Shown here: positions 8,292 through 61,292 of the stretch, in pieces
Layout: the number at the start of each line of letters is the position of its first letter
Position numbering within the stretch: the first letter of the stretch is position 1
Source of the DNA: an uncultured Gammaproteobacteria bacterium
GTDB taxonomy: Bacteria > Patescibacteriota > Patescibacteriia > UBA9934 > CAMTUG01
Assembly (NCBI GenBank): GCA_964588955.1
Contig: CAZPQJ010000007.1
Span: 3,128-67,127, forward strand
Reading direction: 5' to 3'
DNA: 64,000 nucleotides
Translations under genes and position numbers: made by a program
Notes under the pieces: generated by a model
The model's input: the letters and a program-made list of their open reading frames with translations, nothing else
What the model was told of the DNA's origin: nothing
Database searches by the model: none

Positions 8292-8863
8292 AAATCAATT
8301 CCTTCGCGTGCTTTGACGCCGGAATAAAAATAATGTTTGACTAACTTCACTTCCGAAACCAGATGCGCTTTTTTCTTAAAAGATTCTGGTGCATTGCGGC
8401 CGGTTAAAATCATTTCCAATCGATCGGGTTTGCGCTCTAACAAATCCAGTACCTCCTGCTCATCCAAAAATCCGAGTGCGGTACTTGAATTCACTTCATC
8501 CAGCACGAGCAGATCATAATGGTCAGACGTGATCAGCTCAAGCGCCTTAGCCAAACCGGCGCGACCGAGAGCGCGGTCTTCTTCGGTAATCGAAAAATCA
8601 AATCGACCGCTGACAGGATCAATGCGATCGCGTCCGAAGGCGTGCCATTCCACTCCAAGCCGATCGAACACACGGCGCTCCATGTAATGCTCCCCGCCTT
8701 TATCAAAATAGAGAAACGCCGCTTTCTTTCCCGCTCCCAGCGTACGAATCACCGACCCAATCGCCGAGGTTGTTTTCCCCTTGCCGTCGCCAGTAACGAC
8801 TTGAATCAAGCCGTAGCCTTGGCGGCCTTTAATGCGCTCATCAAGAATCGGCTGATCGCTCAT
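8288..8863 (-). CDS. cobO: Cob(I)yrinic acid a,c-diamide / cob(I)alamin adenosyltransferase (CobA/CobO/BtuR family)
   Basis: A P-loop (VVTGDGKGKTTSAIG) is followed by DEVN, HYDLLVLDE and LILTGRNAPE, which is characteristic of the family. Confidence 0.8.
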   Translation of the reverse strand: MSDQPILDERIKGRQGYGLIQVVTGDGKGKTTSAIGSVIRTLGAGKKAAFLYFDKGGEHYMERRVFDRLGVEWHAFGRDRIDPVSGRFDFSITEEDRALGRAGLAKALELITSDHYDLLVLDEVNSSTALGFLDEQEVLDLLERKPDRLEMILTGRNAPESFKKKAHLVSEVKLVKHYFYSGVKAREGIDF

Positions 8864-9996
8864 AGCAAACTGACGGTGCCAGCGTCGGCATCTACAAACA
8901 CCCGATCACCATTTTTCAACACCTGGGTGGCGTTTTTAGCAGCCACGATGCAGGGTTTTTTCAGTTCGCGGCAAACAATCGCCGCGTGTGACAAAATACC
9001 ACCAAAGTCGGTTACGACCGCAGCGCTTTGCATCATGAGCGGCAAATAATCTGGCGAAGTGAACTCACAGACTAAAATGTCATCGGAAGAAAGTTGTGTC
9101 GTCGCTATCTCTTCTGGACGCACCACCCGCACCGTCCCCTCTGCCGATCCGCTTGATCCCGTCCGCCCACGCGCTACGACCTCTCCTCCCCTTACCAAGG
9201 GGAGGCTGGGAGGGGTCTGCGAGATGGTCTGCGTCTGCGACGCCGGCGGCTGAAACTCTTTCCACAACTGCCGATTGTAATCAATAAACCACGTACCAAA
9301 ATCCGGCGTACACACGCCTTCAAAATATCCACACAAAACATTATCCACGAACTCGCCTTGCAGTTCATCGGCAATACGCTGACGGAGTGTGGAATCTTCA
9401 ACGCGAATCATCGAGACCAACTCTTCGACGTGTTCCTTAGCGCCCGGCTGCGGCGGAATCACTTTCCATTCCCCGTTAGCCACCCAAAACGTCATCGGCT
9501 CCCCTTCGTCGTGTATCCCTTGGGTGAGTTGATGGTGTGCACCGGCGACGATCTCTCCAAACACGCCTTGCGTAGATACAATAAAAATCGTCGACCACGT
9601 ATGCGCTTCAGGGTGCGGCATGAAATCAGCACGATACCCCGCGTGATCAATCGGTTGTTCGGCAAACCAAGTCATGGCTTCATCGACACTAGATCCTCGC
9701 GTGCGATATTTTGGTTGACTCACGTCATAGGGCACCAAACGCAAAGCACATTTTTCTTGCCCATGTTCAGCAAGCCAAGCAGCGACCGCTTCACTCATCT
9801 GCGCCACTTCCGTTGCGGGAAAGGATTGCGGCTGATCTGACGGCAAACCGATCAGGTCGCCGAGCACTTTCAAGCGCGCACGCTTCTCGTTGTCTTCGGC
9901 GCGAAAGGCGGCGGCGGTTGGCGAGCCAATCTTCTCCAACCATTCGGTAAGAGAAATCTGCGTCTTCAGCAACTCTGCCAAGTTTACTTTCTCCAT
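8860..9996 (-). CDS. Protein with a C-terminal PEP-utilising-enzyme mobile (phosphohistidine swivel) domain
   Basis: The C-terminus carries GRTGSSGSAEGTVRVV and then GGILSHAAIVCRELKKPCIV. The N-terminal ~250 aa are unassigned. It overlaps cobO by 4 bp. Confidence 0.6.
   Translation of the reverse strand: MEKVNLAELLKTQISLTEWLEKIGSPTAAAFRAEDNEKRARLKVLGDLIGLPSDQPQSFPATEVAQMSEAVAAWLAEHGQEKCALRLVPYDVSQPKYRTRGSSVDEAMTWFAEQPIDHAGYRADFMPHPEAHTWSTIFIVSTQGVFGEIVAGAHHQLTQGIHDEGEPMTFWVANGEWKVIPPQPGAKEHVEELVSMIRVEDSTLRQRIADELQGEFVDNVLCGYFEGVCTPDFGTWFIDYNRQLWKEFQPPASQTQTISQTPPSLPLVRGGEVVARGRTGSSGSAEGTVRVVRPEEIATTQLSSDDILVCEFTSPDYLPLMMQSAAVVTDFGGILSHAAIVCRELKKPCIVAAKNATQVLKNGDRVFVDADAGTVSLL
9180..9215. repeat. 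36-nt palindromic element embedded in-frame in the CDS (second copy at 22444..22480)
   Basis: The sequence is cctctcctccccttaccaaggggaggctgggagggg. The other copy differs at only ~2 positions. Here the element encodes ...TPPSLPLVRGGE... in the linker just before the swivel domain. Confidence 0.6.
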
Positions 9997-15637: not shown

Positions 15638-15838
15638 CTCCGAAGCGGACGGGGTAGACGTTGCTCCGCAGAGCAGAACAGCCGACCAACGGTTCGAGCG
15701 ACGGACAGAAAACCGCACAAACGATTAAACAAACACAGGCCTTGTAGGTCTGTGTTGTTCTGAGCTCGAACCGTTGGGTTGTTTCTTTAGGCCTTCTGCT
15801 CAAGGACAACGTCTGCCCCGGACGCGAAGGTGAGCCAC
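15638..15838. repeat. ~200-bp MITE-like element with imperfect terminal inverted repeats ('element A', copy 1)
   Basis: The left TIR is ctccgaagcggacggggtagacgttg. The right TIR is caacgtctgccccggacgcgaaggtgag. An internal 14-bp perfect palindrome is present (ccaacggttcgagc ... gctcgaaccgttgg). A near-identical inverted copy lies at 33181..33420. A half copy lies at 20732..20797. Confidence 0.75.
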
Positions 15839-20453: not shown

Positions 20454-20731
20454 AGTGTACGCATTTTAGCACACTTGACGATGCACTAAAACATCTTCCC
20501 ACTTTCTTTGTTCCGTCAAAGAAAGAGGAGGTTATGAAACCGTCCGGCCTATCCTGCGTTCGCCGGGCCAGTAGCGGCAGAACATCCCTTGCTGCGGAAC
20601 TCGCTTCTCGGCTAACAAGATAAATAAGCCTCGTACGCTCAAACAATCCTCGCTTCTGAAGGAAAGGATGTTCTGCCGCACTGGCTCCGTCGTACTCGGA
20701 ACGGCCGGGGGCGAACGGGCAAGGGGCGAAC

Positions 20732-20797
20732 GGGACACGGACGGGGCTAATGTTGCTCCGCAGAGCAGAACAGCCGACCAACGGTTCGAGCGACGAG
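20732..20797. repeat. Truncated (left-half) copy of element A
   Basis: gggacacggacggggctaatgttgctccgcagagcagaacagccgaccaacggttcgagcgacg matches the element A left arm. It is preceded by three ggcgaacggg tandem repeats. Confidence 0.65.
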
Positions 20798-22411: not shown

Positions 22412-22440
22412 AAAACCAGTGGTTTGTGACCACTGGTTTT
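22412..22440 (-). terminator. Rho-independent terminator downstream of hup
   Basis: A perfect palindrome, aaaaccagtggt-ttgtg-accactggtttt, carries T-runs. Confidence 0.65.
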
Positions 22441-22443: not shown

Positions 22444-22480
22444 CCTCTCCTCCCCTTTCAAAGGGGAGGCTGGGAGGGGG
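22444..22480. repeat. 36-nt palindromic element (intergenic copy; see 9180..9215)
   Basis: The sequence is cctctcctcccctttcaaaggggaggctgggaggggg. Confidence 0.6.
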
Positions 22481-22484: not shown

Positions 22485-22766
22485 CTAAAGAACCGCTTCC
22501 TTGGCAGCTTTGGCCACGCGGAACTTCACCACCGTCTTCGCTGGAATCTGAATGGTAGCGCCCGTAGCCGGGTTGCGACCTGAGCGAGCAGCACGGTGCA
22601 CTTTGACCATTTTTCCCAAACCGTTCAAAGCAAACTCTCCGTTGGACTTCACTTGAGCGTAGGCGAGCTCAACGAGCTTGTCCATGAACATGCTCACGTC
22701 TTTCTTGGACATGCCGGTTTTTTCGGCGAGGGTCTGGAGCAACTGTGACTTGGTCATCTTAGCCAT
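22485..22766 (-). CDS. hup: HU-family nucleoid-associated DNA-binding protein
   Basis: 93-aa ORF. GRNPATGATIQIPAKTVVKFR matches the HU arm signature. Confidence 0.9.
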   Translation of the reverse strand: MAKMTKSQLLQTLAEKTGMSKKDVSMFMDKLVELAYAQVKSNGEFALNGLGKMVKVHRAARSGRNPATGATIQIPAKTVVKFRVAKAAKEAVL

Positions 22767-23123: not shown

Positions 23124-26100
23124 TTATCCAAGCAGAAACTTAAGAAACTTCTTCATGAGAGACTTTCCTACGGCCTGTTTCTTTCCACCCCCCACTTTGT
23201 CCGCCAACAAGGATTCAAAGAAATCTGTCTGCGAGTCCCGACCACTCAAATCCCCAGAGACGCGTTCGTAGCCCTTACGCAATACTTGGTCAGTAATATA
23301 TTCTGGCGAATCTTTGCCAACCGAATCATTCCACTTCTCCACCATGGATTTAACGCGTGATTTACCACGCTCAACAGCCCCGCTCTTTTGTTCCTCTTCA
23401 TCCACGTCGTCTTGTTGCGACTTAACCAGCGCATCTACTTGATCGTTAGAAAAACCTAAGTTAGCGGCAATGTCTGGACGCATACCCCAATCCTTCATTT
23501 GATCGGCAGTAACGGTCGACAAGTCCACTTTCGTCTCATTCCCATCTTTATCCACATAATTTCTCTGGTTCGTATCTGGATCAATCACCAACTTTTCCTG
23601 GGCGCCCAAATCAATCACCCAACGATTTTCCGCATCTCTACTGATGCGATTCGGACGCGGAGCTACTTCCGGTTTTGGCACCGCCGCCGGCTCTGCTGCC
23701 TTACCACGTTTAATCTCATCAGACTGCTTATCTAAAGCCGTATTGGAATCAGTCAACGTAGCAACTTCCTGATTCAGACGCGCGATCACGGATTTCTCTT
23801 GCGCCACTTTTCCTTCTAACTCTTTCTTGTGGGCGGCAAGTTGATCCATCGATGTTTTAATCGTCTTCACGCCACCCATCTTGGCCTCTTTAAAGGCTTT
23901 TAATCTCTGTTCAAGACCATTTAAGTGACCATCCACGGCATCAAGCCGATCCTGGTTTTTCTCTTTTGACTCAGCCACCTTACGCTGTTGTTCTTTAAGG
24001 ATCTTAAGAGCCTGTTCGTTGGCCGCCTTCTTTTCCTCCAACCGAGCGACCATACGATCACGCGCTTCGTTGGCACGACGCTCAAAATCCTCTTTTTGCT
24101 GCAACAAGTTTCCTCTCTTACCTTCCAAGGCATTCCACTCTTCTTGCAAACGTTCCCCCGCCTCTTCAAAATCCTTAATCTGTTTGTCGAAACCCGCTTG
24201 ATCAGCCGCAGAAATTCCATGGGCGGCAGCCCCCTCCAACCCAAGCGTTACGTTGATTTTGGCATACTCCTCCTTCAAGTTTTCAACATTTTTTCGCACA
24301 CGAGCAGCGCCAACTTTTGTCGCGTCAACTTCCAGCGCCTTTTTTTCCTTCTGCTTATCAAGATCTTTAATTTTCCCTTCCACCCTGTTAATCAGTCGCT
24401 GATCGTTCCAAACACTCAAACGATCAATAGGGCTAGAAAAGCGCCTCTCAATACTTTCATACAAATCCGCAATAAACCCTTTGCTCTCCGTGGTTAATGC
24501 GGCCGCTTCTTTACCCGCTTCCTCCCCCATTGTGTCGCGCACAAGATCCGAAAAACTCCCCTCATAAGCAGGGGCGTCCGCCTTCTTGTCCGTTCCCGCG
24601 TCTTTTACCTCAGTCTCAACCTCCACTTCAACAGGCTCGCCCGCTTTCGCGCTTGGATCCTCAAATCTTCGTTCCATAGATTTGTTTATATTTCCTCCGG
24701 TGACTTTAGGTTTAATTTTTATGTGGGCGGTTTGATGCATTTGTTCTGCAACCCAGGCTTCTTTTTCTGGCCCAAGCGTCTCTCGTAATGTTGGAGAATG
24801 CAAGAGCTGTTGACTCATTTGATTGGCCAAACCAACAATCAACACGCGCTGGCGATTGGCCACCGCATCATCCCCCGCTTGGACGGCCGCGTTAAAATCA
24901 TCGACTGCCTGATCATAGGCGGTCTCCAGTTTCCCAAAAGCTACTGACTCTGGCGTCTCGGGTTTAGGTTCTTCTTCTACGGGCACAGGCGATACAACTT
25001 CCGGTTGTTTTTGCATGGCCGCCGCAAACGCTTTTCCTTCAGCCACTGCTTGCTGCAAATAAACTTCTCCGCCAGGAACAAGCAATCGCCGCTTTTTCAA
25101 CTGCTCCACGGTCATCAAACCATCCACTAATTCTTGGAAATAGATAAATCGATCTGGCTGCTTCAATTTCTTCGTGTCCCAAATATCCGTCCGCTGGGCT
25201 GTAACTTCGAGCAATTTTTCCAAGTCCCGAGCAGGTACTTCCGTGCCAGCCAGACGAGATTTCATAGGGCGTCGTCCGTAAGTGGCGCCGAGTTCAGGCG
25301 TCGGGGCGGAAGGAATCGTTTTTCTGTCCGCCTCTGGACGCAACCAATTTCTCAAACGTGCAAAGATCCCCGCGGGACGTTTTTGATCACCAACAGGCTG
25401 GGCATTTTCCGCGTAGACAAAACGTCTTGGTGCGGGCGCGGGGCGGTCGAGAACATCGATCTGATCATACAAAGGAGCCAACGTGTCCTTATACTGTTCG
25501 ACAAAGGCTGGAAAGTCAGAAAAACAGTCTTCTAGACGGTCTACCCTGAATGCGGCTTGCAAGTAGGCAACATCTGGTTGATCGCCCGCTAACTGACGAC
25601 GATATTGATCAACAATCAAACGACGATCCATAGAATCAAACGCGTTGAATCGCGCGTCCGGCAGGTTGGCGATACGCTCTTCCAACAGAAGCAACGCATT
25701 CTGGCGCTCTGTCCATCGCTGCGCCTCGGCAGACGTTAAGGTGTTTTCCACTGGACGATTGCGATCCGCAGCCGGAAGTATCCCCGCTTCCGTGTGTTCA
25801 TCGGGAGAAATCAATTGATCACGGCGTGCCTCAAGATTCTTTTGCAATCCGCGCAGCGCCTGCACGCGCTCACCCAACAAACCGTCCCGGGAATTTTGCA
25901 CCATCATCACAAGCTGTGCCGTCATGCGATCATTCGCTCGCGGATCGGCCAACAACTCCCCAATCACACGGCGACGTTCATCCATCGACACAGAATTTTT
26001 CCAAATGGTCGGATCCCCCGCTAAGGCCTCAATTTGATCTCGAAATGCCATCTCTGCGGCGCGATATTCTCCACTCTTCGGATCAATCTCAGCCGAAGTT

Positions 26101-28757
26101 GCGGACCAGCGGCGCTGTAACACAGACATCGATGACGAGTAACCCCTCTCATCTAATTGCTGTCTGAGTTCTTCACGTTGGGCAGACAAATCTTCCAAAT
26201 CATTTCCTAACAATCGAAGAGCCTGAGGGTCGTTACTCCCTTGTGCGCGCAAATCCTCATCCGGCATGCTCTCACTGTCTGCAGCCAGCAACAAAACTTC
26301 CAGTGGCGTCGTAAACGCTCCCCACTGACCAGGGTCGCCAATCTCCGCGGCGATGCGTTGTTCTACCTCTCGTAATTCTTCCAACCAACGATCCTCCTCA
26401 GCTTCCTCCTCGGCCATACTTCGCAAACCAGCCTTCTCCATGGTCGGCAGCGGCACAGCTCCTCCCGGCGTTGGAGTCATATCGACCCCTGGGGAGGTGT
26501 CGGGCATCGCAGCACCTTGAGCAATCAAATTATCAACCGTTGCAGATGCAACCGACCGCCCTTTTTCGGCCAGTGCCTGAATTTCTTTTACTAATGCCTG
26601 ATCAGATTCCAAATCTGGAAAGGCCTCCAGCAACGGCTCTATTTCTCCAGCCAAATCAATAAAACGCTGATTGATTTCCGCCCGCTCTTCGTCTGTATCT
26701 GCCAGGGCCAATGCGTTCGACAACGCGTCCCATCGCTCCACCAAAGGTTGATAGAAACCCGCGGCTTCGTGTTCCGCCGTCTGAGCTACAGCAGCCATAG
26801 AGGCATCAACAGCGGCATCGACGGGGGTGGAATCTATTGTCGCTGATCCTGTCACCGCCTCTACGACTGCACGCTTGGCTTCCATATACGGAGCCATGGC
26901 TCGCGTGAAAAGATCTTTAAATAGCTCCTGCTGCTTTTTCTTTTTTACCACTCCGTCTGGAATCGTAATCACACCCGTGACTTTGTACTCATTTATCGCC
27001 GCGATTAACTGCTGTTCTCGTGTCAGATCACCTTTCTTCGCTTTTTTCCAAATTCCAGACGAAGAAGGAGCCAAATTCTCCAGCACTGCAATTGTGGCTG
27101 CCCGTTCCGTTTCCCTAAATGCATCTACTTTTTGAATCGAGGCATCGATCAAAGCCTCACGAGCAGATCGTCTCATTCCTACCGAATCCTCAAGCGCTTT
27201 TGAGGGCAAGTGATAGGTGCGTTTCGAAGCCGACGTTGCCGCTGCAGCAACATCTGCTTGACGTTGTGCTTCTTCCGCTTCCGCCTGTTCTTTTGCCTCC
27301 ACGATACTTTCAACCAATTGGGCAAACGCTCGCACGTCGTCTCCTTCAAACTCCGGCTCCCGTACAGTTTGCAACGCCTCCTGACGAATCGCCTCGGCTT
27401 CTGCCGACGTACCCGCGGCTTCAATCCGTTCCGTAAAGGTACTAATAGTTTGTTGTTGCTCTACTTTTTTTGCCTCGGCTGCCTCCTGCTGTTTTGCTTC
27501 TACAATCGGCTGGACGCGAGCACTAAAATCCGCGGTTCCTTTTGCGCTATAGGCTGGTGGAACCATCACCTTAGCTGCCTCTGAAATGAGATCCCAAACC
27601 TCATCGAGCGTTCCCGCCTGTTCGATGCGTTGAAAAAACTCATCCGCCACCCGCTGGTGCTCCAGGCGATCCGCTTCCTTTTGCGCTTCACGCGCGTCCT
27701 TGTCTGCTTTCCATTTTGCCTCGAACTCACCTTGAACAATCCCTTTCTCTACCTCTTTTTCTAACAAATCATCGTGCACAACGTCTAACAACACCTCTGG
27801 AGTCGTTGTTAACGCTTCTGCCTTTTTCTTGAATGCCTCACGTGCGGCATCTTTTGCATCACCATCTTCCATCTTTTGCCACGCCTGCATGTCACGCACG
27901 ATCTCCGCGACACTGGTCTCAATAGCCTGTCGATTCTTTATCCAATCATCTTTTGATTGAGCCTTAATAAACCCCGGGTATCCCTCTTTTTTAGCGAACA
28001 CCTCAACAGAGTCCCGTTGCTGTTGCGTCAAGTCATCGAGTAAATCTCTCAACAACGCTTGCTCAGTCTGCCTCACCCCTTTTGTCTTGCCAAAACGCAT
28101 TTCTCTCGGCTTGCGTTCCAACTGACGCAGACTCACATCTAACGCGTCTTGCTGATCGGCGAATGCAGCAAACTTGACCACATCATCCGTACGATTAGCA
28201 AAAAAGGGGTATTGCGACGGATCAAGTCCGCTGCGCTTGGCTTTTAACCACAGTTGCAACATCTCGCGTCCGTGCTGCGTTGCCTTAAACATTTTGTCTG
28301 CTTTACGCTGTTCACCGACCGCAACATCTAATTCACGTCGTTTGAGAAAAAACGGATCGTCTTTCTGATCTGCCCCCTTGGTCGTATCAGCAGAAGCATC
28401 ACCGATTTTCGTATCAGGTTGGACATCAGGATTCGATTTTGACCTACCGTCTTGCGACCCGGCCCCCGCGCGACCGAGGATGCGATCTAATTCTTCCGCG
28501 ACCTTATTCGCCGTCTTTAGTCCATCTGCTTTAAAACCTTTATTAAACGCTTGTATATCACCCGATGCAATAAACTCATCTATGTGTTTGTGGCGTTTTA
28601 TTTCTGTATTTAAATCAGCACTCCATTTTTTTACAAAAAGAGGATTCAACAATTTCTTCCAGGCATTTTCTAGGTCCTCGGCACGCTTCTCTTCTTGCTT
28701 TTTTGCTGCTTCCACATTTGCAGCCGCTTCCGCAAAGGCGTTTTCTTCCTCGACCAT
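23124..28757 (-). CDS. Giant (1877 aa) coiled-coil protein, function unknown
   Basis: One uninterrupted ORF rich in E/A/K/Q/R/L throughout. No catalytic motif was recognised. Confidence 0.7.
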   Translation of the reverse strand: MVEEENAFAEAAANVEAAKKQEEKRAEDLENAWKKLLNPLFVKKWSADLNTEIKRHKHIDEFIASGDIQAFNKGFKADGLKTANKVAEELDRILGRAGAGSQDGRSKSNPDVQPDTKIGDASADTTKGADQKDDPFFLKRRELDVAVGEQRKADKMFKATQHGREMLQLWLKAKRSGLDPSQYPFFANRTDDVVKFAAFADQQDALDVSLRQLERKPREMRFGKTKGVRQTEQALLRDLLDDLTQQQRDSVEVFAKKEGYPGFIKAQSKDDWIKNRQAIETSVAEIVRDMQAWQKMEDGDAKDAAREAFKKKAEALTTTPEVLLDVVHDDLLEKEVEKGIVQGEFEAKWKADKDAREAQKEADRLEHQRVADEFFQRIEQAGTLDEVWDLISEAAKVMVPPAYSAKGTADFSARVQPIVEAKQQEAAEAKKVEQQQTISTFTERIEAAGTSAEAEAIRQEALQTVREPEFEGDDVRAFAQLVESIVEAKEQAEAEEAQRQADVAAAATSASKRTYHLPSKALEDSVGMRRSAREALIDASIQKVDAFRETERAATIAVLENLAPSSSGIWKKAKKGDLTREQQLIAAINEYKVTGVITIPDGVVKKKKQQELFKDLFTRAMAPYMEAKRAVVEAVTGSATIDSTPVDAAVDASMAAVAQTAEHEAAGFYQPLVERWDALSNALALADTDEERAEINQRFIDLAGEIEPLLEAFPDLESDQALVKEIQALAEKGRSVASATVDNLIAQGAAMPDTSPGVDMTPTPGGAVPLPTMEKAGLRSMAEEEAEEDRWLEELREVEQRIAAEIGDPGQWGAFTTPLEVLLLAADSESMPDEDLRAQGSNDPQALRLLGNDLEDLSAQREELRQQLDERGYSSSMSVLQRRWSATSAEIDPKSGEYRAAEMAFRDQIEALAGDPTIWKNSVSMDERRRVIGELLADPRANDRMTAQLVMMVQNSRDGLLGERVQALRGLQKNLEARRDQLISPDEHTEAGILPAADRNRPVENTLTSAEAQRWTERQNALLLLEERIANLPDARFNAFDSMDRRLIVDQYRRQLAGDQPDVAYLQAAFRVDRLEDCFSDFPAFVEQYKDTLAPLYDQIDVLDRPAPAPRRFVYAENAQPVGDQKRPAGIFARLRNWLRPEADRKTIPSAPTPELGATYGRRPMKSRLAGTEVPARDLEKLLEVTAQRTDIWDTKKLKQPDRFIYFQELVDGLMTVEQLKKRRLLVPGGEVYLQQAVAEGKAFAAAMQKQPEVVSPVPVEEEPKPETPESVAFGKLETAYDQAVDDFNAAVQAGDDAVANRQRVLIVGLANQMSQQLLHSPTLRETLGPEKEAWVAEQMHQTAHIKIKPKVTGGNINKSMERRFEDPSAKAGEPVEVEVETEVKDAGTDKKADAPAYEGSFSDLVRDTMGEEAGKEAAALTTESKGFIADLYESIERRFSSPIDRLSVWNDQRLINRVEGKIKDLDKQKEKKALEVDATKVGAARVRKNVENLKEEYAKINVTLGLEGAAAHGISAADQAGFDKQIKDFEEAGERLQEEWNALEGKRGNLLQQKEDFERRANEARDRMVARLEEKKAANEQALKILKEQQRKVAESKEKNQDRLDAVDGHLNGLEQRLKAFKEAKMGGVKTIKTSMDQLAAHKKELEGKVAQEKSVIARLNQEVATLTDSNTALDKQSDEIKRGKAAEPAAVPKPEVAPRPNRISRDAENRWVIDLGAQEKLVIDPDTNQRNYVDKDGNETKVDLSTVTADQMKDWGMRPDIAANLGFSNDQVDALVKSQQDDVDEEEQKSGAVERGKSRVKSMVEKWNDSVGKDSPEYITDQVLRKGYERVSGDLSGRDSQTDFFESLLADKVGGGKKQAVGKSLMKKFLKFLLG

Positions 28758-30044: not shown

Positions 30045-31092
30045 ATACGGTGATTAATCGCTCCAGTAGTCGATCCCAGTCGTACTCCTCTACCACCCGC
30101 TTGCGCGCGTTAGCTCCCAGTTTCCCACAAAAGACCTCGTCATTCAACAACTGGTCGATGGCGCGGGTAAGCGCGGAAGCGTCGCCAGGTGGCACCAACA
30201 ATCCTGTCTGCCCATCTTTAACCACCGTGCGCACGCCGGGCAAATCCGAAGCGATGGTGGGAATACCGCTCGCCGCCGCTTCCAATGCCACCAACCCAAA
30301 TGCCTCAGCCGATGATGTTGAAGGAAAAAGATGCATCGTCGCCAAACGATAACATGTCGGCAGCTCTTCCGGTGAACGGCTACCAACAAAATGCACACGG
30401 TCAGAGGAGACAGATGCTTCAAAACCCGCTCGCAAATCTCCATCGCCGATAATCACTAGATGGGCGGAGAAAGAAGGAGAAAGAAGGAGAAACGATTGAA
30501 GAAGAGTAGGAACACCTTTAAAGGCATGAGCAGTATCAAGCCCGCCGACAAACACCAACACCGGAGCGTTCGCCGGGATCGCGAGTTGCGTTCGCAACAT
30601 GGCTTCTTCTCCCGTGGCCACGGGATGAAAACGACGAATATCTACACCGAACGGCAGTTCAACAAGACGCGCCAAACGACGGAAACGGCGCAACGCCGAA
30701 GCCGCGGCATAATCCAACGAACTGACCAAAATCTTTTTTGCCCGCAAAAGAATGAGCGGTTGAATCAAGGTGCGATGCAAGCGAAACACCAATCCTTTGA
30801 TTCCCCTTGCCCGCGCGTCCATGTGATAGGTCAGGACAATGGGTCGACGGCAAAAAAGCGCGACCTGTTCCGCTCCGCCATACAAGGGATAGTGCAAATG
30901 CACCACGTCAAACGCGTTCAAACGCCGCAATTGCTGCGGCGAAAAAAATCCGGCATTGCCAATCTTCCAGGCGGGCGTGAACACCTCCACCTCGTGCCCC
31001 AAGGCGCGTAAGCGTTCCGTATACTCGTAGGCGACCGAGCCCATCCCCCCGCGATACGGAGGATAAACCGGCGTGACCTGGGCAATCTTCAT
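30022..31092 (-). CDS. Glycosyltransferase family 4
   Basis: The N-terminus reads MKIAQVTPVYPPYRGGMG. The C-domain reads SSAEAFGLVALEAAASGIPTIASDLPGVRTVVKDGQTGLLV. The start was chosen at the MKIAQ Met. Confidence 0.8.
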   Translation of the reverse strand: MKIAQVTPVYPPYRGGMGSVAYEYTERLRALGHEVEVFTPAWKIGNAGFFSPQQLRRLNAFDVVHLHYPLYGGAEQVALFCRRPIVLTYHMDARARGIKGLVFRLHRTLIQPLILLRAKKILVSSLDYAAASALRRFRRLARLVELPFGVDIRRFHPVATGEEAMLRTQLAIPANAPVLVFVGGLDTAHAFKGVPTLLQSFLLLSPSFSAHLVIIGDGDLRAGFEASVSSDRVHFVGSRSPEELPTCYRLATMHLFPSTSSAEAFGLVALEAAASGIPTIASDLPGVRTVVKDGQTGLLVPPGDASALTRAIDQLLNDEVFCGKLGANARKRVVEEYDWDRLLERLITVYEDCHHH

Positions 31093-33180: not shown

Positions 33181-33420
33181 TCGGACTCCCCTCCCACGTC
33201 CGAGCCAGACGTTGTCCTTGAGCAGAAGGCCTAAAGGAACAACCCAACGGTTCGAGCTCAGAACAGCAGAGATCTACACGTTCAGTTATTATTTGTTGTG
33301 TTCGTTTGACTTTCCGTCCGTCGCTCGAACCGTTGGTCGGCTGTTCTGCTCTTCGGAGCAACGTCTGTCCCGTCCGTGTCCGGGTCGCCCGAGCAATAGG
33401 CGACCCGAAGCGGACGGGGC
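33181..33420. repeat. Element A, copy 2 (inverted relative to copy 1)
   Basis: Its reverse complement matches 15638..15838 over the TIRs and both internal arms. It also contains gggtcgcccgagcaataggcgaccc, a hairpin. Confidence 0.75.
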
Positions 33421-35612: not shown

Positions 35613-35783
35613 GTATAGCAAAACCAAACACCTCCTGCCAATGGCAGGAGGTGTGAGGTAGGCGCAGTGACGACCCGCCCGAAGGCAAGATGGTGTACGC
35701 CAAGGTTTGTGCTGCCTGTGGACCAGAGCACCCGAGAGCGCGCCGGAGACAGAACAGCGATTCAGGATCCGGTACTCGTTTAA

Positions 35784-49338: not shown

Positions 49339-49449
49339 TAAGAATCTCTCGCACCCCTTCAGGAAGATCTCCCTTCAGGGCGCGTTGGCGGAGGTCGGTC
49401 CCGCTCTCTTGATACTCGACCTACAGCGGGACTTCTCCTCGCTGGATGC

Positions 49450-51042
49450 CTACTTCCAGTAGGCGTTGATGTAGGCGCCGTCGTTGGCGCCCGTCTTGGA
49501 GCCGTCGCCGTCGTCATCGGTCGAAACCGGGACGGCGAAGAGCGGAGCCTCGTCGTCGCGGTAGAGGTTGCCCACCACCGCGAACTCGTAGACGCCGTCG
49601 CCATCCGTGTCGCCGATGTTGGCGGCCCCCCATTGGACCTCGGCCCCGTCGAAGTACTCGACCTGGAGCACTTCGAACCCCGTGGGGAACTCCATCGGCT
49701 CGGAGACGATCTCGGTGGTCAGCACCCCGAAGTCGGCAGTGGCGATCACGGTCCACTCGAGGGTGTCCCAGCTCCAGGACCAGATCTGCCCCCCGTAGAA
49801 GCCCTCAGGGAGCTCCCAGGTGACGATCGAGAGGCCGTCGTCGATCTCCGTGCCGGTGTCGGCGGTATCGGCGTCGACAGCCGTGTCGGAGTCCTCGGTC
49901 CCGACGCCCGTGCCCGCGGTGTCCGCCGCGGAGTCGATGCCGGTCTCGACGGACCCGGTGGCCGTGTCGACCGTGCCGGTGTCGGTGGCCGTGTCGGAGT
50001 CGACCGCGGTGTCGGCCTCGGCGGTGTCGCTGTCCGCGACCGCGCCGGAGTCCGAGTCGACGAGCACGATACCGGAATCGCTCCCGGTGTCCGTGTCGCT
50101 GTCGACGCCGGTGTCGATCGCGCCGGTGTCGGTGTCCTCGGGCAGACAGTCGTCGCCCTCGTCCACCTGGCCGTCGCAGTCGTTGTCGATCTTGTCGCAC
50201 TCCTCGACGGCGCTCGGGTTGATGGCCTCCGCGTTGTCGTCGCAGTCGATCGCGCCGCTGACGGTGGTGAAACCGTCGCCGTCACAGTCGTTGTCGACGC
50301 ACGGGTCTTCCTCCGCGGAATCCGCCGCGGTGTCGGTGTCCCCGGTGCCGCCGGAGTCGACGGTGCCGGAGTCTTCGGGCTCGGCGCCCGTGTCGACGAC
50401 CTCGCAGCCCTCGTCGACCAGCCCGTCGCAGTCGTCGTCCCGCTCGTTGGAGCAGGTCTCGACCGCACCGGGGTTGACCGACTTGTAGTCGTCGTCACAG
50501 TCGCCCGGGAGGCTCGCGTCGGCGCACTCGGCGCCTTCACAGAACCCGTCGCCGTCGTTGTCGTATTCGCCGACCACGGTGCCGCTGTCAGCGTCCGTGT
50601 CGGAATCGGTGTCGGTGTCCGCGTCCGAATCCGTGTCGGCATCCGTGTCCGAGTCCGCATCGGTGTCGCTGTCGGAATCCGAATCGGTGTCCGAGTCCGT
50701 GTCAGCGTCCGTGTCGGAATCGGTGTCGGTGTCCGCGTCGGAGTCGGTGTCCGTGTCCGCCTCGCCGGTATCGACACTGCCGCTGCCGGCCGTGTCGACG
50801 ATCTCGCCGGTGTCGGTGTCCGTGCCCGAGTCCGTGTTGGTGTCCACGATCCCCGAGTCTTCCCCGGAGTCCGTCTCGACCGTTCCCGTCTCGGTGTCCG
50901 CCGTGTCGACCGGGGCGCTGTCGCCCGTGTCGATCTCGCCCGTCTCCCCCTGCTCGACGCTGCCGGTGTCGGCGACATCGTAGTCGAGGTCGATCGGGTT
51001 GCTGTCGCAGCCGACGAGGATCAAGCTGATGATCAGGAACAT
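49450..51042 (-). CDS. Lipoprotein with acidic (DTD/DSD)n tract and MopE-like Asp/Cys-rich 'putative metal-binding' repeats
   Basis: The lipobox is LILVGC. It is followed by tandem DxDxDGDGxxxxxDCDDxxxxxxPGAxExCxxxDxDCDG-type units and a W-rich C-domain. GC is ~67%. Confidence 0.7.
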   Translation of the reverse strand: MFLIISLILVGCDSNPIDLDYDVADTGSVEQGETGEIDTGDSAPVDTADTETGTVETDSGEDSGIVDTNTDSGTDTDTGEIVDTAGSGSVDTGEADTDTDSDADTDTDSDTDADTDSDTDSDSDSDTDADSDTDADTDSDADTDTDSDTDADSGTVVGEYDNDGDGFCEGAECADASLPGDCDDDYKSVNPGAVETCSNERDDDCDGLVDEGCEVVDTGAEPEDSGTVDSGGTGDTDTAADSAEEDPCVDNDCDGDGFTTVSGAIDCDDNAEAINPSAVEECDKIDNDCDGQVDEGDDCLPEDTDTGAIDTGVDSDTDTGSDSGIVLVDSDSGAVADSDTAEADTAVDSDTATDTGTVDTATGSVETGIDSAADTAGTGVGTEDSDTAVDADTADTGTEIDDGLSIVTWELPEGFYGGQIWSWSWDTLEWTVIATADFGVLTTEIVSEPMEFPTGFEVLQVEYFDGAEVQWGAANIGDTDGDGVYEFAVVGNLYRDDEAPLFAVPVSTDDDGDGSKTGANDGAYINAYWK

Positions 51043-51339
51043 GTGGGTCTCCTTGCAGGCACTCTGGCCTGCCATGGGTTCACGCTTTCAGGAACGTCTC
51101 AAACGCACAAACGTGGATTGCGCTCGAGAAAAGGGAGGAGATTCGGCTCCTTTGTCCTAGTTCCGCAACGATTTACCATCATCACGAAACAGGAAAATAT
51201 AGCATAAAAATGGGGTTTTGTCAATGGTACATGGCCAATATTGGCCAAAAAATGCCATTAAACGCGAAGACGCCGCCCGAGGAGTGAACCTGGGCGGACG
51301 TCGTTGGAGGTCAGGGCCCGGTCGGGTTGGTAGAAGCGG

Positions 51340-52857
51340 CTAGGGGGCGGTGATCATGCGGGAGTAGTCGCCGTCGCCGTCGGGGTCGACCAGGGTGACG
51401 GAGTTGGGCACCCCGTCCGTGCTGGAGTGGATGCTGGCCGAGGCGTCGTCGGCGAGCGAGGTGCCGTCCGGGAAGTAGGCGTCGACGGTGGCGCTGTCGC
51501 TGCCGCCGAGGCACAGGTCCATGGTGAAGGCGAAGTACCAGGAGGTGCCGCCGAGGAAGCTACTCGAGACCGTCACCCCGACCACGCCTTCCGGGGACCA
51601 CTCGCCGCTGAGCGCCGAGCCACCCCCGGTGACTTCGGCCACGAACGAGTCGGGCTGGCCGTTGTTGCTGTTCAACTCGACCAGGAACTCGCACGGATCC
51701 TCGTCGACGCTACCGTCACAGTCGTTGTCGAGGCCGTCGCTGCCCTTGTCGGCGGCGCCGGGGTGGATGGTGTCGTCGGTGTCGTCGCAGTCGTCGTCGT
51801 TGTCGACGTAGTCGGAGGGAGCCGTGCAACTCGTGAAGGTGTCACTCGGGTCGCCGTAGCCGTCCTCGTCGCCGTCGTAGTAGCGGGTGACCTCGTCGAC
51901 CGCGCGGTCGTGGATGTCGCCGTCGCAGTCGTTGTCCACGCCGTCGGTGGCGCAGGTCTCCGGGGCGCCGGTGTAGGTGGCGGCGTCGTAGTCGTTGCAG
52001 TCGAGGGTGTTGTCGACGAAGCCACCGGGCGCCTCGCAGCCTTCGGTGGAGGAGCTGGCGTTGCCCTGGCCGTCGGCGTCGACGTCGGCGTAGAAGGGAC
52101 TCATCACCCCCTCGTCGACGCTCTCGTCACAGTTGTCGTCGACGCCGTTGCAGGACTCGGGGGCACCGGGGTAGATGGTGCCGTCGTCGTCGTTGCAGTC
52201 GTCGGCGTTGGCCGACCACCCGGGGAAGGCCTCGCAGGCGAGGATCGTCGACGCGTTGCTGCCGTAGGTGTCGCCGTCGGCGTCGATGTAGATGGTGGTG
52301 TAGAGACCCTCCTCGTCCGTGTCGACCCAGGTGTCCCAGGTGTCGCAGTCGTTGGGCTGACCGTCACAGACCTCCGGCGCGCCGGGGTAGATCCAGGCGT
52401 TGTCGTCGTCGCAGTCCCAATGGAACTCGCTCGGGTCGCCGTCACCGTCCTCATCGTAGTAGTCGTCGTCGGTGAGCTGCTCGTAGGCGTCGGAGAGCTC
52501 CCCGCCGTTGGCTGCCACGAACTCCTCGAGGGTGTCGATGTCGCAGGCCATGGCCACGCCGTTGCTGTCGTTGAAGCCGTCGCCGTCGCTGTCCATGGCC
52601 CAGATGTTGTCGACGTGGTAGGTGTCGGCGTCGTCGGCCGCGCCGTCGCAGTCGTTGTCGACTCCTCCGTCGCACAGCTCGACCGCCCCGGGGTGGATGT
52701 TGGGGTCGGCGTCATCGCAGTCCCCGCCGAGCTCGGTGTAGCTGTCTCCGTCGTCGTCGACGTAGTAGCCCTTCTCGGTCGAACCCGACTTGTCAGTGGG
52801 ATTGCGACCGGTACCGGCACAGGCCGCGAGGAGGAGGATGAGGGAAAGGTAGCGCAT
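51340..52857 (-). CDS. Lipoprotein with MopE-like Asp/Cys-rich repeats
   Basis: The lipobox is LLLAACAG. There are 5 or more DCDD..PGA.E.C.G.DNDCDG repeats. GC is high. Confidence 0.7.
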   Translation of the reverse strand: MRYLSLILLLAACAGTGRNPTDKSGSTEKGYYVDDDGDSYTELGGDCDDADPNIHPGAVELCDGGVDNDCDGAADDADTYHVDNIWAMDSDGDGFNDSNGVAMACDIDTLEEFVAANGGELSDAYEQLTDDDYYDEDGDGDPSEFHWDCDDDNAWIYPGAPEVCDGQPNDCDTWDTWVDTDEEGLYTTIYIDADGDTYGSNASTILACEAFPGWSANADDCNDDDGTIYPGAPESCNGVDDNCDESVDEGVMSPFYADVDADGQGNASSSTEGCEAPGGFVDNTLDCNDYDAATYTGAPETCATDGVDNDCDGDIHDRAVDEVTRYYDGDEDGYGDPSDTFTSCTAPSDYVDNDDDCDDTDDTIHPGAADKGSDGLDNDCDGSVDEDPCEFLVELNSNNGQPDSFVAEVTGGGSALSGEWSPEGVVGVTVSSSFLGGTSWYFAFTMDLCLGGSDSATVDAYFPDGTSLADDASASIHSSTDGVPNSVTLVDPDGDGDYSRMITAP

Positions 52858-52933
52858 CTCGATTGACTCCGTTGGGGTGATCTCCCTAAGAAAAGCACTT
52901 GGAAACCCAGTAACTTCCGCATGGGGAGATAGG

Positions 52934-52962
52934 GTTATACCCAGGAACTGTCAAATTGTCAA
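52934..52962 (-). promoter_or_regulatory. Candidate promoter (TTGACA-N17-TATAAC) for the 51340..52857 gene
   Basis: On the minus strand, ttgaca is at 52962..52957 and tataac at 52939..52934. Confidence 0.4.
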
Positions 52963-53018
52963 TATAATGAGGATCCCCTCAGGAAGAGCGCTTCCCGAGG
53001 GGATCTTGAGAAACCCGG

Positions 53019-54629
53019 TCAAAACTTGCCGTCACAGTCGTCGTCGTAGGCGTCGTCGGGCGCGTCGTAGGCGCCGGGGTGGGTGGAGTCGTTGCTGTCG
53101 TCGCAGTCGCCGTTGTGGTCGACGTAGCCTTCCGGACAGATTCCGTCCTTGGCGGCAATCCCGCCCACGGAGTCGCCGTAGCCGTCGTTGTCGGCGTCCG
53201 GGAAGCAGGCCACTTCGCAGACGTTGTCTTCGTCGATGACGCCGTCACCGTTGTTGTCGACGCCGTCGCACTCCTCGACGTCACTGCAGTCCGCGATCCC
53301 GTCGCTGTCGGCGTCGAAACCTTCGTCAACCTCATCATCGCAGTCGTCGTCGAGGCCGTTGCAGATCTCTTCCGCGTCGGGGTTGATCGCCGCGTCGGCA
53401 TCGTCACAGTCGCCGCTCTCCGCGATGTAGCCAGAGGGCGCGCTGCAGTTCTCGATGCTGTCGCGACTGTCACCGAAGCCGTCGTTGTCGCCATCGTAGT
53501 ACCAGGTGGTGGCTCCGGTGGCGTCGGACTCGTCGGTGGTGCCGTCGCAGTCGTTGTCCGCGCTGTCGCAGACCTCGCTCGCGCCGGGGTTGATCGTCGA
53601 ATCGCCGTCGTCGCAGTCGCCCTTGGCTTCGACGTAGCCGCTCGGGGCGGTGCAGGTCGTCTCGCTCTTGCGGGCGAGGCCGTACCCGTCGCTGTCCGCG
53701 TCGAGGTAGAACGTGGAAGTGCCCACGGCGCTGTCGGGATCGATCTCGCCATCGCAGTCGTCGTCGAGGCCGTTGCAGGTCTCGATCGCGTCCGGGTTCA
53801 CTTCCGCGCTCGTGTCGTCGCAGTCGCCCGCGTCCACCACGTAGCCCGAGGGCTCGTAGCAACTGACGACCGCGTCGCCCGGGTTGCCGAAGCTGTCACC
53901 GTCGTTGTCCGCGAACCAGGTCGGGGCACCGAAGGCGTCGCCCTCGTCGACGCTGCCATCGCAGTCGTTGTCGAGGCCGTCGCAGTACTCGGTAGCGCCC
54001 AGGTGCACGCCCACGTCGGCGTCGTTGCAGTCGTCGGCGTTCTCGACGTACTCCTCGGGCACGGAACAGGCCAGGGTGGAGGAACTCGCGTTCCCCTGCC
54101 CGTCGCCGTCCGCGTCTTCGTAGAACGTCAGCTCGACGCCTTCGTCGACGCCCCCGTCGCAGTCGTTGTCCGCACTGTCGCAGACTTCGCTCGCGCTCGG
54201 GTTGACGTCGCTGCGCGCGTCGTCGCAGTCGTTGGCGTTCACGACGTAGCTCGGGATCTCCACGCAGGTGGTGATCTCGATGCTGGCGTCGCCGTAGCCG
54301 TCGCCGTCGCCGTCGAAGTAGCGCGCGTCGCCATCGTCGCTCTCGCCATCGCAGTTGTCGTCCACGCCGTTGCCGCAGATCTCGGCCACGCCAGGGTTGA
54401 CGCTCGCGTTGTTGTCGTCGCAGTCGGCCTCAGCGCCGTAGCCGTCGCCGTCGTTGTCCGTGTCGACGACCCCACCGCTGTCGCTGTCGACGTTGGTGTC
54501 GCTGTCGTCGCCGCCGGTCTCGACGTTGCCGGTCTCTTCGACCGAATCGGCCGAGTCGACATCGTCCGAATCCCCGTTGTACGGGGGCAGGAACATGTCC
54601 ATGCAGGCACTCAAAAGGAGCAAGATCAC
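53019..54629 (-). CDS. Lipoprotein with MopE-like Asp/Cys-rich repeats
   Basis: The lipobox is LLLSAC. There are ~9 repeats of the form DADGDGxG....C.....YV....DCDD.....NPGA.E.C...DNDCDG. Confidence 0.7.
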   Translation of the reverse strand: MILLLLSACMDMFLPPYNGDSDDVDSADSVEETGNVETGGDDSDTNVDSDSGGVVDTDNDGDGYGAEADCDDNNASVNPGVAEICGNGVDDNCDGESDDGDARYFDGDGDGYGDASIEITTCVEIPSYVVNANDCDDARSDVNPSASEVCDSADNDCDGGVDEGVELTFYEDADGDGQGNASSSTLACSVPEEYVENADDCNDADVGVHLGATEYCDGLDNDCDGSVDEGDAFGAPTWFADNDGDSFGNPGDAVVSCYEPSGYVVDAGDCDDTSAEVNPDAIETCNGLDDDCDGEIDPDSAVGTSTFYLDADSDGYGLARKSETTCTAPSGYVEAKGDCDDGDSTINPGASEVCDSADNDCDGTTDESDATGATTWYYDGDNDGFGDSRDSIENCSAPSGYIAESGDCDDADAAINPDAEEICNGLDDDCDDEVDEGFDADSDGIADCSDVEECDGVDNNGDGVIDEDNVCEVACFPDADNDGYGDSVGGIAAKDGICPEGYVDHNGDCDDSNDSTHPGAYDAPDDAYDDDCDGKF

Positions 54630-54868
54630 GGGACCTCCAGGGTAGGATAATCTTCAAAACAGAGCAGGCCCCTATTTTGAAGATCGGTTGGGGAAAAGTG
54701 CTAATCGTTGCTTTTGGCCTGACTTATGCCCTTGTCAGTCCAAAAACACCTCTCAAATTAGCCTTGTTTTCCTTGTCCGCGAACTGTAGTTCTTATCACG
54801 ATAATCAAGAAACGTCAAGCAATTGCGCCTCCCCAGGGAGTACCCGGGGAGGCGCAAGCAGTCAGGGA

Positions 54869-56722: not shown

Positions 56723-56870
56723 CGTTTTCTCCGGTCTTGGTGGGTGGGTCATACGGCTCTTTTGGTTTAGAGCCGACAAAGAAACCTACACGTTAAAGAC
56801 CAAAAAGTCAAGGGTTAAGACGTCATTACGCCTCCCCAGGGAGTACCCGGGGAGGCGTAAAAGTCAGGGA

Positions 56871-57473
56871 CTAGCCGTCCTTCTTGCCGTCACAATCGTC
56901 GTCGATGCCGTTGCAGCCTGCCTGCGGGGTGACCCCGTCATCGGCCAGGCAATCTTCTGCGCCCGGGTACATGCCGTTGTCCGCGTCGTTACAATCGCCG
57001 GCGCAAGTCGTGTAGCCATCGCCGTCGCTGTCGAAGCCTTCATCAACGCCGCCGTCGCAGTCGTCGTCGAGGCCGTCGCAGATCTCCATGGCGTTCGGGT
57101 TGATGACCGAGGAGGTGTCGTCACAGTCGGTGTTGTCGACCACGTAGCCCGCGACTTCCTCGCAGGAGGTGACCATCGCGCCCGCGTCCCCGAAGCCGTC
57201 GGCGTCGAGGTCGAGGTAGTAGAGGGTGGCGTCCGTGGCCGCGTTGTCCACTTGGCCGTCGCAGTTGTCGTCGAAGCCGTTGCAGACTTCTTCTGCCCCG
57301 GGGTAGACGCTCGCGTTGTCATCGTCACAGTCGTCGCCGAACACGAACCCGTCGTGGTCGCTGTCGATCTGATCGACGCCCGCTGTGGAATCGACCACTT
57401 CCGACGCCGTGTCGACATCGTTGAGTTGGATCGACGCAGAGGAACAGGCCAGCAAGAAGATAATCAAGGACAT
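56871..57473 (-). CDS. Small lipoprotein with MopE-like repeats (paralog of 54869..56722)
   Basis: The lipobox is LLACSS. The C-terminus reads DCLADDGVTPQAGCNGIDDDCDG. A ~50-nt 3' region including a terminator hairpin is shared with 54826..54877. Confidence 0.7.
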   Translation of the reverse strand: MSLIIFLLACSSASIQLNDVDTASEVVDSTAGVDQIDSDHDGFVFGDDCDDDNASVYPGAEEVCNGFDDNCDGQVDNAATDATLYYLDLDADGFGDAGAMVTSCEEVAGYVVDNTDCDDTSSVINPNAMEICDGLDDDCDGGVDEGFDSDGDGYTTCAGDCNDADNGMYPGAEDCLADDGVTPQAGCNGIDDDCDGKKDG

Positions 57474-57719
57474 GGATGATCTCCGGTAGAGATATGGATG
57501 CCATTTGCAGGTCTCTTGTAATCAAGAGCCAACAAAGAAACCTACACGCCGGAAGCCGAAAGGTCAAGGGTGGTAATACGTGGATTTTCAAAAAACGCCA
57601 GCTGCAAGGCGCGGGGAAGCCGGCGAAGGAGCCGTATCTAAACATACGGCGACAAGACGGCGGGGCCCCGCAACACAGCAGATGGCGGAATTTTGGAAAT
57701 CCATAATCCAAAATATGAA

Positions 57720-57757
57720 GCGCCCCTGAAGAAGAGAGAGCTTCCTTCAGGGGCGCA
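57720..57757 (-). terminator. Terminator hairpin (CCCCTGAAG palindrome) after the 57824 gene
   Basis: gcgcccctgaag-aagagagagcttc-cttcaggggcgc is followed on the sense strand by a T-rich tract. Confidence 0.55.
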
Positions 57758-57823
57758 AAGAGTTTCTTCGTCGCGCCCCCTTGGGAAGATTCCTCTTCTT
57801 CAGGGGCGCCTCGTTGTGCCGGG

Positions 57824-59158: not shown

Positions 59159-59194
59159 GGGGTGATACTCCGCGGCTTCAAGCCGCGCTCGCAC

Positions 59195-59432
59195 TGTTAC
59201 GGGAACCGGAAACTCACACAGGATTGTGCGTCCGTCGTCGTTGTCCAGGAATTGAACCTTTCGGACGGACGGAAGTTGGGGAACAGGATTGGGAGATAAA
59301 GATGGAGAAAGAGGGAGAAAAATGGATATTGGGAAAAAATTCTTTTCCCTTTCTCCTATCTCCTATTTTCTCCTACTTTTTCTCTATCCACCCAATTCCA
59401 CAACTTCCATCCGCCTATACAGATTCAATCTC
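59195..59432. repeat. Upstream module copy 1 (~240 bp): conserved 5' leader hairpin plus GGAGAAA-rich palindrome, directly upstream of the 57824..59158 gene
   Basis: It runs ggaaccggaaactcacacaggattgtgcg-tccgtcgtcgttgtcc...gaacctttcggacggacggaagttgggg, then ggagataaagatggagaaagagggagaaaaatggatattggg...ttcttttccctttctcctatctcc, then ccacaacttccatccgcc. It matches 61069..61292. Confidence 0.7.
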
Positions 59433-61068: not shown

Positions 61069-61292
61069 TTGGAACCGGGAAACTCACGCAGAATTGCGCG
61101 CCCGTCCGTTGTGTCCTTTTGGGTATTGAACCTTTCGGACGGACGGAAGTCGGGGTGGGAAGATAAAATAGGAGAAATGAGGAGAAAGAAGGATATTGGG
61201 GAAGACTTTCTCCCTTTCTCCTATTTTCTCCATCTTTTTCTTTTTATCCTTCCAAGATCCACAACTTCCATCCGCCACGATCAATTCAATCC
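61069..61292. repeat. Upstream module copy 2 (matches 59195..59432), directly upstream of the 59535..61028 gene
   Basis: The layout is the same three parts. The GGAGAAA palindrome is ataggagaaatgaggagaaagaaggatattggggaagactttctccctttctcctattttctcc. Confidence 0.7.

Follow-up and report, generated by a model that had tools for sequence, protein, structure and literature searches.

Class II purine-motif intrastrand triplex motifs consist of three arms, with pyrimidines at the 5′ end, purines in the middle and a reverse-Hoogsteen strand at the 3′ end (Holder 2015, PMC4666352). The E. coli motif of this class (TM-ECO) has been traced to BoxC, described in the 1990s, and to the PIT elements of Hoyne and Maher (2000), and the E. 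coli type is present in 3,610 copies in 262 proteobacterial genomes, with G/C-rich motifs abundant in cyanobacteria (PMC4666352). Its isolated strand forms a stable triplex as single-stranded DNA in vitro, as monitored by circular dichroism and nuclear magnetic resonance, and purine-motif triplexes are not formed in RNA (PMC4666352). No promoter, terminator or polymerase effects of the E. coli motif (PIT) were observed in vivo and no transposase is associated with it; type A and type B copies form inverted doublets, local genome variability is raised around the motifs, and the location in E. coli K-12 was reported as 'always intergenic' (PMC4666352). Here, we describe a repeat present twice in a 64-kb window (the whole stretch of DNA analysed: 64,000 nucleotides, positions 3,128 to 67,127 of contig CAZPQJ010000007.1, GenBank assembly GCA_964588955.1), once between genes and once in frame inside a gene whose product carries a phosphoenolpyruvate (PEP)-utilising mobile domain. 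Judged by its sequence, the element is a new member of the BoxC/PIT/TM class and of another subtype than the E. coli motif, fitting the class definition but not the E. coli pattern. The reading that we consider probable is that of a BoxC/PIT/TM-class repeat lying in frame in a permissive linker and behaving as a selfish or neutral element with recurrent turnover.

In the ~30 years since its description, the class has yielded neither a function nor a copying mechanism, and in its best-studied host it is reported to be strictly intergenic. The literature on BoxC and PIT is reportedly also due to Bachellier (1990s) and to Hoyne and Maher in 2002. The window element and the TM-ECO/BoxC/PIT motif share three 9-nt arms, the first C-rich and the other two G-rich, with a loop of 3-6 nt after the first and one of 3 nt after the second; both measure ~33-37 nt, have conserved arms and variable loops, occur as inverted A+B doublets and in many dispersed copies, and lack a linked transposase. 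They differ in the purine arm (AAGGGGAGG in the window, GGGNGAGGG in E. coli), in an extra 5′ CCTCT in the window, and in the host, which is probably a member of the Patescibacteria instead of the Proteobacteria. The chief difference is one of location, the E. coli copies being always intergenic whereas copy A and many of its relatives are in frame inside genes. The strict TM-ECO/BoxC pattern, searched as the regular expression CCCTCNCCC-N3-6-GGGNGAGGG-N3-GGGNGAGGG, had no match on either strand of the window.

Other short palindromic repeats were also compared. The initial annotation of this DNA had called the element similar to Rickettsia palindromic elements (RPEs), which holds for its behaviour (in-frame insertion, unrelated genes, fold-compatible positions) but not for its identity, since it measures 36 nt and the RPEs known from Rickettsia measure ~150 bp and form ten families with a conserved peptide (PMC10969869). 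Both are short palindromic repeats found intergenically and in frame in unrelated housekeeping genes, with the peptide at positions compatible with the fold; the window element is distinguished by its triplex-type third arm, by its spread across phyla, and by peptides that vary with orientation and frame. REP (repetitive extragenic palindromic) sequences and REPINs carry a 5′ GTAG or CGTC tag, co-occur with a RAYT (IS200-like Y1) gene and have no mirror arm. They resemble the window element as imperfect hairpins of 20-40 nt that are often arranged as inverted doublets and probably act as single-stranded DNA. A REP tag was not found at either copy: CTAC at 9174-9177 beside copy A has the wrong polarity and side, and copy B has none. 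To our knowledge, no RAYT has been linked to the BoxC/PIT/TM class. The small dispersed repeats of Nostoc (Elhai et al., 2008) are said to be mobile, nesting hairpins of ~21-27 nt with no known transposase, and are mentioned as a lead only. H-DNA arises in duplex homopurine mirror repeats under supercoiling; the window element likewise contains homopurine mirror repeats capable of reverse-Hoogsteen triads, but has all three strands consecutive on one strand, that is, in the form of an intrastrand triplex.

Two copies of the repeat are present in the window

Copy A (9180-9215) reads CCTCTCCTCCCCTT-ACC-AAGGGGAGGCTGGGAGGGG, and copy B (22444-22479) has the same letters with the loop TCA (given as 'tcc' in the initial annotation, which had otherwise located the 36-mer correctly in an open reading frame (ORF) and in an intergenic region). 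The two copies are identical at 34 of 36 bases, the differences being confined to the 3-nt loop 1 (ACC versus TCA), and the identity ends sharply, with no similarity one base past either end. The 64-kb window contains these two copies only: when as many as three mismatches were tolerated, the right half of 19 nt was found twice against 0.01 expected in shuffled sequence. A metagenome scan for the full 36-mer returned one unrelated locus, in three samples, and no further copies from the source organism. Rfam at gathering thresholds detected two tRNAs only in the whole window, with no match at either copy.

Read on the plus strand, which is the G-rich strand, copy A with its complete third arm extends over 9180..9216 and consists of CCTCT (9180-9184), the pyrimidine arm CCTCCCCTT (9185-9193), the loop ACC (9194-9196), the purine arm AAGGGGAGG (9197-9205), the loop CTG (9206-9208) and a reverse-Hoogsteen (mirror) arm GGAGGGGT (9209-9216). 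The intergenic copy B, also on the plus strand, extends correspondingly over 22444..22480, with CCTCT at 22444-22448, the pyrimidine arm at 22449-22457, the loop TCA at 22458-22460, the purine arm at 22461-22469, the loop CTG at 22470-22472 and the mirror arm GGAGGGGG at 22473-22480.

The purine arm is mirrored in the third arm

The subtype can be written as CCTCCCCTT-N3-AAGGGGAGG-CTG-GGAGGGGT, in which a pyrimidine arm, a 3-nt loop and the complementary purine arm are followed by the loop CTG and the third arm. The stem formed by CCTCCCCTT and AAGGGGAGG is a perfect 9 bp with a 3-nt loop in both copies. The element had been described as a 36-nt palindrome; however, the third of it at the 3′ end repeats the purine arm in mirror order and is neither the complement nor a direct repeat of that arm, which corresponds to the class II intrastrand triplex layout (PMC4666352). 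Aligned in this register, copy A gives 8 of 8 triads (six G.G-C, one A.A-T and one T.A-T) with the 9th position mismatched, and copy B gives 7 of 8, the last position being mismatched. A scan for class II triplexes found both copies and had no hits in 20 block shuffles of the window. Each sequence feature of the class definition was found, namely a pyrimidine-rich arm at the 5′ end that is separated by 1-6 nt from its Watson-Crick purine arm (stem of at least 8 bp), and an antiparallel 3′ third arm that follows a second loop of 1-6 nt and allows G.G-C and A/T.A-T triads, no more than one position being mismatched, together with an occurrence above that in scrambled sequence, conserved arms and variable loops.

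The 5′ CCTCT extension is shared by both window copies and one metagenome locus and is absent from nearly all copies elsewhere. In DNA and RNA hairpin folds it can pair with the third arm, and it makes the unit resemble a 36-nt palindrome in the form of a bulged hairpin.

The mirror relationship was also examined in hairpins that had not been selected by the search pattern. Among 231 perfect 9-bp pyrimidine/purine hairpins of this kind, 50 had a mirror tail compatible with triads at 9 of 9 positions, whereas 1 of 231 did so in the direct-repeat register used as the control. These 50 hairpins represent 21 distinct combinations of arm and tail, in which A faces A or T, and G faces G. Since copying by a polymerase from a template cannot make a mirror repeat, the three-way covariation points to selection on Hoogsteen (triplex) geometry, and there is good evidence that this geometry is what is conserved among the subtypes. 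The folding of the window subtype itself as a triplex would follow by analogy with the in vitro work on the E. coli relative.

An alternative in which the G-rich half GGGGAGGCTGGGAGGGG is the functional part and folds as a quadruplex instead of a triplex was weighed against these results. Its four G runs of 4, 2, 3 and 4 do permit a quadruplex, but one of two tetrads only, and a quadruplex leaves unexplained both the strictly complementary pyrimidine arm and the mirrored A or T opposite A throughout the 21 subtypes; we regard this alternative as very improbable.

A further, weak triplex-like match was noticed at 35632-35662 (CTCCTGCC-AAT-GGCAGGAG-GTGT-GAGGTAGG). It has one mismatch and impure arms and is probably due to chance.

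The core is distributed across phyla

Species-representative genomes were scanned once with the 27 specified bases of the core. The core was found in 72 genome loci (referred to by L numbers) from Nitrospira, Nitrospina, Vibrio/Photobacterium, cyanobacteria, Chloroflexota, several Patescibacteria, Prevotella, Gemmatales and Deltaproteobacteria. The arms are identical in all 72 loci and the loops and flanks vary, with a T after GGAGGGG in most copies. The flanks are rich in other subtypes, for example CCCCTCCTT-N3-AAGGAGGGG-TTA-GGGGTGGTT. The statement of the initial annotation that such repeats are not commonly described elsewhere was therefore not borne out, the class being known from more than 260 genomes (PMC4666352) and the exact core from these 72 loci.

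In viral contigs, the exact subtype gave 0 hits, and three subtypes searched with a relaxed loop 2 gave 1, 6 and 5 loci, respectively; there is thus no sign of carriage by phages and no enrichment in viral contigs.

At six Nitrospina/Nitrospirota loci (L010, L037, L044, L046, L057 and L068), the window subtype is joined to a second, inverted subtype via a palindromic spacer, GGTTGATATCAACC. These composites recall the A+B doublets of the E. coli motif.

Copy A lies in frame in the interdomain linker of a swivel-domain protein

The host gene of copy A (8860..9996, minus strand) encodes a 378-aa protein whose N-terminal domain is of unknown family and whose C-terminal domain is a PEP-utilising mobile (swivel) domain, which matches Pfam PF00391 over residues 304-373 (E = 2.6e-24). 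Its nearest named homologs are from Patescibacteria, and a CobA-type gene adjoins it in the window and in relatives; the probable placement of the host among the Patescibacteria is based on these two features. Copy A encodes residues 261-272 (TPPSLPLVRGGE; T261-PPSLPLVRGG-E272) within the interdomain linker (residues 243-276) and leaves the frame intact; as annotated before, the repeat is read without disruption in the linker that precedes the swivel domain. Five of the six reading frames of the element are open, and a stop occurs only where a loop supplies one.

Compared with the nearest homologs, the linker between the N-terminal and swivel domains is the sole poorly aligned region of the protein. 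The distance from WFIDYNR to GRTGSSGS is 34 aa in the window protein and has a median of 23 in 114 homologs (referred to by P numbers). The closest orthologs, P0003 (82.7% identical outside the linker) and P0004 (66%), have no element at the DNA level, and the window linker minus 12 codons has the same length as theirs. The ortholog alignment that had been proposed as a check thus showed the 12 residues to be absent from both. Evidence to the contrary was to have been the same residues encoded by unrelated DNA; nearly identical residues (TPPNLPLERGGE) are present in P0115 and P0097 (in P0097 they are known at the peptide level only), and the DNA of P0115 proved to be the same element, so that the reading stands and the linker is seen to be a recurrently occupied site. 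An AlphaFold2 model based on the 114-sequence alignment had a mean pLDDT (predicted local distance difference test) of 92.4 and a low value (~57) at residues ~251-270, which form the only low-confidence coil and lie directly before the first strand of the swivel domain. An in-frame, tolerated insertion of 12 codons is supported by these results.

Repeats are gained, exchanged and lost in the same linker

Peptides encoded by such repeats were found in the linker of ~13 of the 114 homologs (~11%). Nine cases including the window were confirmed at the DNA level, the others being P0002, P0011, P0115, P0111, P0092, P0071, P0101 and P0080, and these comprise three subtypes and both orientations. In P0002, the next closest ortholog (81% identical), the place of the window repeat is taken by another subtype, CCCCTCCTC-TCT-GAGGAGGGG-TTG-GGGGTGGT, in the same orientation and reading phase as the window. 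The linker copy of P0011 is antisense, and P0115 has one sense and one antisense copy, the latter being of the subtype and phase of the window. Sense copies are present in P0111, P0101, P0092 and P0080, and also in P0071 (L084 5001-6140), where a second, 33-nt GC-rich hairpin, CCGCCAAAGGCGGATCCGCCTCCGGCGG, is nested in loop 1 and the frame is still maintained. P0111 and P0092 carry different subtypes with exactly equal position and length, as in an in-place swap. Decay was likewise observed, both in P0086, where a deletion of 8 nt has left a remnant of the motif, and in the pyrimidine arm of P0111. The occupied genes fall into at least 5 clades, and close relatives are unoccupied (P0003, P0004, P0016 and P0050).

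The presence of unrelated peptides in the orthologs, derived from other subtypes of the same DNA architecture, bears on the possibility that there is no repeat and that a Pro/Gly-rich linker resembles an intergenic hairpin by chance or by convergent selection on the peptide. The linker is indeed compositionally biased and variable, but the occurrence of one architecture behind unrelated peptides, the 34/36 identity to a non-coding copy with sharp boundaries, the expectation of ~0.01 and the core in 72 loci make this possibility negligible. Chance resemblance was rejected on the shuffle expectation, the 72 loci and the sharp boundaries of copies A and B.

The recurrence could instead reflect a selected function of the DNA or mRNA hairpin at this site, such as translation pausing for co-translational folding, a joint for recombination, or pausing of replication or transcription. 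This explanation agrees with the occupation of the same linker in ~11% of orthologs from at least 5 clades, with the single reading phase of all four antisense copies, with a strong mRNA hairpin (-24 to -29 kcal/mol over 56 nt) and with a second gene that has the same positional persistence (see below). However, the copies occur in both orientations and in three subtypes, they decay (P0086 and the pyrimidine arm of P0111), and the four unoccupied relatives do without them, which argues against a selected function at the linker site. A role in RNA that requires the third arm is disfavoured by the mixed orientations and by the failure of purine-motif triplexes to form in RNA, and PIT has no promoter, terminator or polymerase effects in vivo (PMC4666352). 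We therefore consider a selected site function improbable and prefer the reading as a selfish or neutral repeat.

In-frame copies are present in other genes

The loci examined for the orthologs of the host gene also include three Patescibacteria-like genomes in which the CCA-adding enzyme (PolyA_pol head domain) contains in-frame triplex motifs; these occupy one loop (~aa 79-106) with differing subtypes and orientations (L083 3661-3693, L098 6253-6288 and L099 4091-4176). In other phyla, in-frame motifs lie between or within domains of PutA (L065 1332-1415), QueG (L035 5820-5851), a PMT-family glycosyltransferase (L013 3128-3159) and PurL (L047 4430-4471), from hosts belonging to Gemmatales, Deltaproteobacteria, a cyanobacterium and Nitrospirae. 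The PutA copy is an inverted doublet in an interdomain linker. Searches of the literature retrieved neither later studies on how PIT/TM elements work nor any description of copies in frame, and within the literature searched the repeated occupation of the same protein loops by in-frame copies is undescribed.

Occurrence both between and inside genes, with in-frame copies in many genes, is also what would be expected of an RPE-like miniature inverted-repeat transposable element (MITE) that is mobilised by a transposase acting in trans and inserts in frame into ORFs. Gain and loss among close orthologs are evident, and one nested insertion was seen. On the other hand, the element measures 33-37 nt compared with ~150 bp for RPEs, has no terminal inverted repeats beyond the hairpin, and shows no target-site duplication or shared flank at either window copy or at the one related metagenome locus. 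No transposase is linked to the class, viral contigs lack the exact subtype and have few loci of the others, and a mirror third arm is needless for a transposon end. Such a MITE is accordingly an unlikely explanation, although slightly less so than a selected function of the linker site.

Proposed origin and maintenance of the repeat

The explanation that we favour, a BoxC/PIT/TM-class repeat that persists as a selfish or neutral passenger in permissive linkers, would operate as follows. As duplex DNA inside the gene, the repeat amounts to 12 extra codons, specifying a coil of Pro/Leu and then Arg/Gly/Glu, and the protein tolerates it because this coil falls in a length-variable, disordered linker before the phosphohistidine swivel domain. 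When single-stranded, the G-rich plus strand can fold as a 9-bp hairpin, whose major groove may then accommodate the 3′ mirror arm as a third strand by way of G.G-C, A.A-T and T.A-T triads. The window linker would have gained its copy after or around the split from the closest relatives. Across the Patescibacteria-like orthologs, repeats in the linker are gained, swapped in place, invaded by other hairpins and left to decay. For the swaps, a stepwise change from one subtype to another needs six coordinated substitutions, so that gene conversion from other genomic copies, or their re-insertion, appears simplest. Copies would persist only where they are harmless, selection filtering a selfish or neutral repeat to permissive protein loops. 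In gene-dense genomes, the harmless sites would include disordered loops, given that the repeat contains hardly any stops and specifies flexible peptides of Pro/Leu and Gly/Arg/Glu. Both the mode of copying and the neutrality in this scheme are inferred.

Several observations weigh against this explanation. The CCTCT extension allows a competing hairpin, paired entirely by Watson-Crick rules, that engages the third arm, and the E. coli relative has no detectable triplex in duplex DNA or in vivo (PMC4666352). The divergence of the linker prevents insertion boundaries or a target-site duplication from being read in DNA alignments with the closest orthologs. Countable copies in the source genome are two, and the copy number rests on 64 kb; the DNA-confirmed linker loci were picked for repeat-like peptides and do not amount to an unbiased census. 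All four antisense linker copies share one reading phase, and this, together with the ~11% occupancy, could point to ancient shared ancestry or to targeting instead of random gain followed by filtering.

The ~11% occupancy, the shared antisense phase and the second gene with the same positional persistence leave room for targeting or retention. Triplex repeats of Patescibacteria might then be actively homing or gene-converting single-stranded DNA elements for which specific protein loops serve as targets or as sites of retention, and whose subtypes replace one another in register; we consider this a tentative possibility, with the swivel-domain linker of the PEP-utilizers family and the head-domain loop of the CCA-adding enzyme as candidate target loops. 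If true, linkers in gene-dense genomes would evolve in part by a route that had gone unrecognised, and the elements would give a handle on the copying of the whole BoxC/PIT/TM class.

Small gene-dense genomes present the class in frame inside conserved proteins, in the same loops and in many lineages, and the orthologous filled, empty and swapped sites provide comparative material for working out how the repeat is copied. The repeat would also explain recurrent Pro/Gly-rich insertion peptides in protein predictions from metagenomes.

Surroundings of the intergenic copy and other repeats of the window

Copy B is flanked by hup (22485..22766, minus strand), which encodes an HU-like protein of 93 aa and whose stop codon lies 4 nt from the repeat. 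On the opposite side of the repeat, away from hup, folding predicted a terminator-like hairpin, AAAACCAGTGG...CCACTGGTTTT (22412..22440, minus strand), which a simple terminator scan did not flag. Copy B had been placed right after the hup terminator; it is situated between the hup stop codon and this hairpin, and would thus be part of the hup 3′ untranslated region, upstream of the putative terminator. The neighbouring 1,877-aa ORF adjoining hup (window 23124-28757, minus strand) is highly charged and coiled-coil-like.

The region 49400-59200 has 61-65% G+C, compared with ~50% elsewhere, and is densely filled with degenerate repeats (GTCGTCGCAGTC...) and with ORFs of ~500 aa that overlap one another and lie on both strands. 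A giant Asp/Cys-rich repeat protein, a block acquired horizontally and a chimeric contig join are possible explanations.

A/T-rich purine/pyrimidine tracts (GGAGAAA.../...TTTCTCC) were observed at 59285-59390, 61198-61252, 61482-61509, 62093-62141, 62767-62856 and 30459-30495. Around the genes at 59-63 kb these tracts are arranged as long inverted repeats; their sequence is unrelated to that of the G/C-rich motif, and they may be prone to form H-DNA or triplexes.

A MITE-like repeat of ~180 nt, itself a long palindrome (GACGTTGCTCC...GGACAACGTC), is present at 15646-15824, at 33197-33390 (inverted) and, as a half copy, at 20724-20795, and its copies are 87-90% identical.

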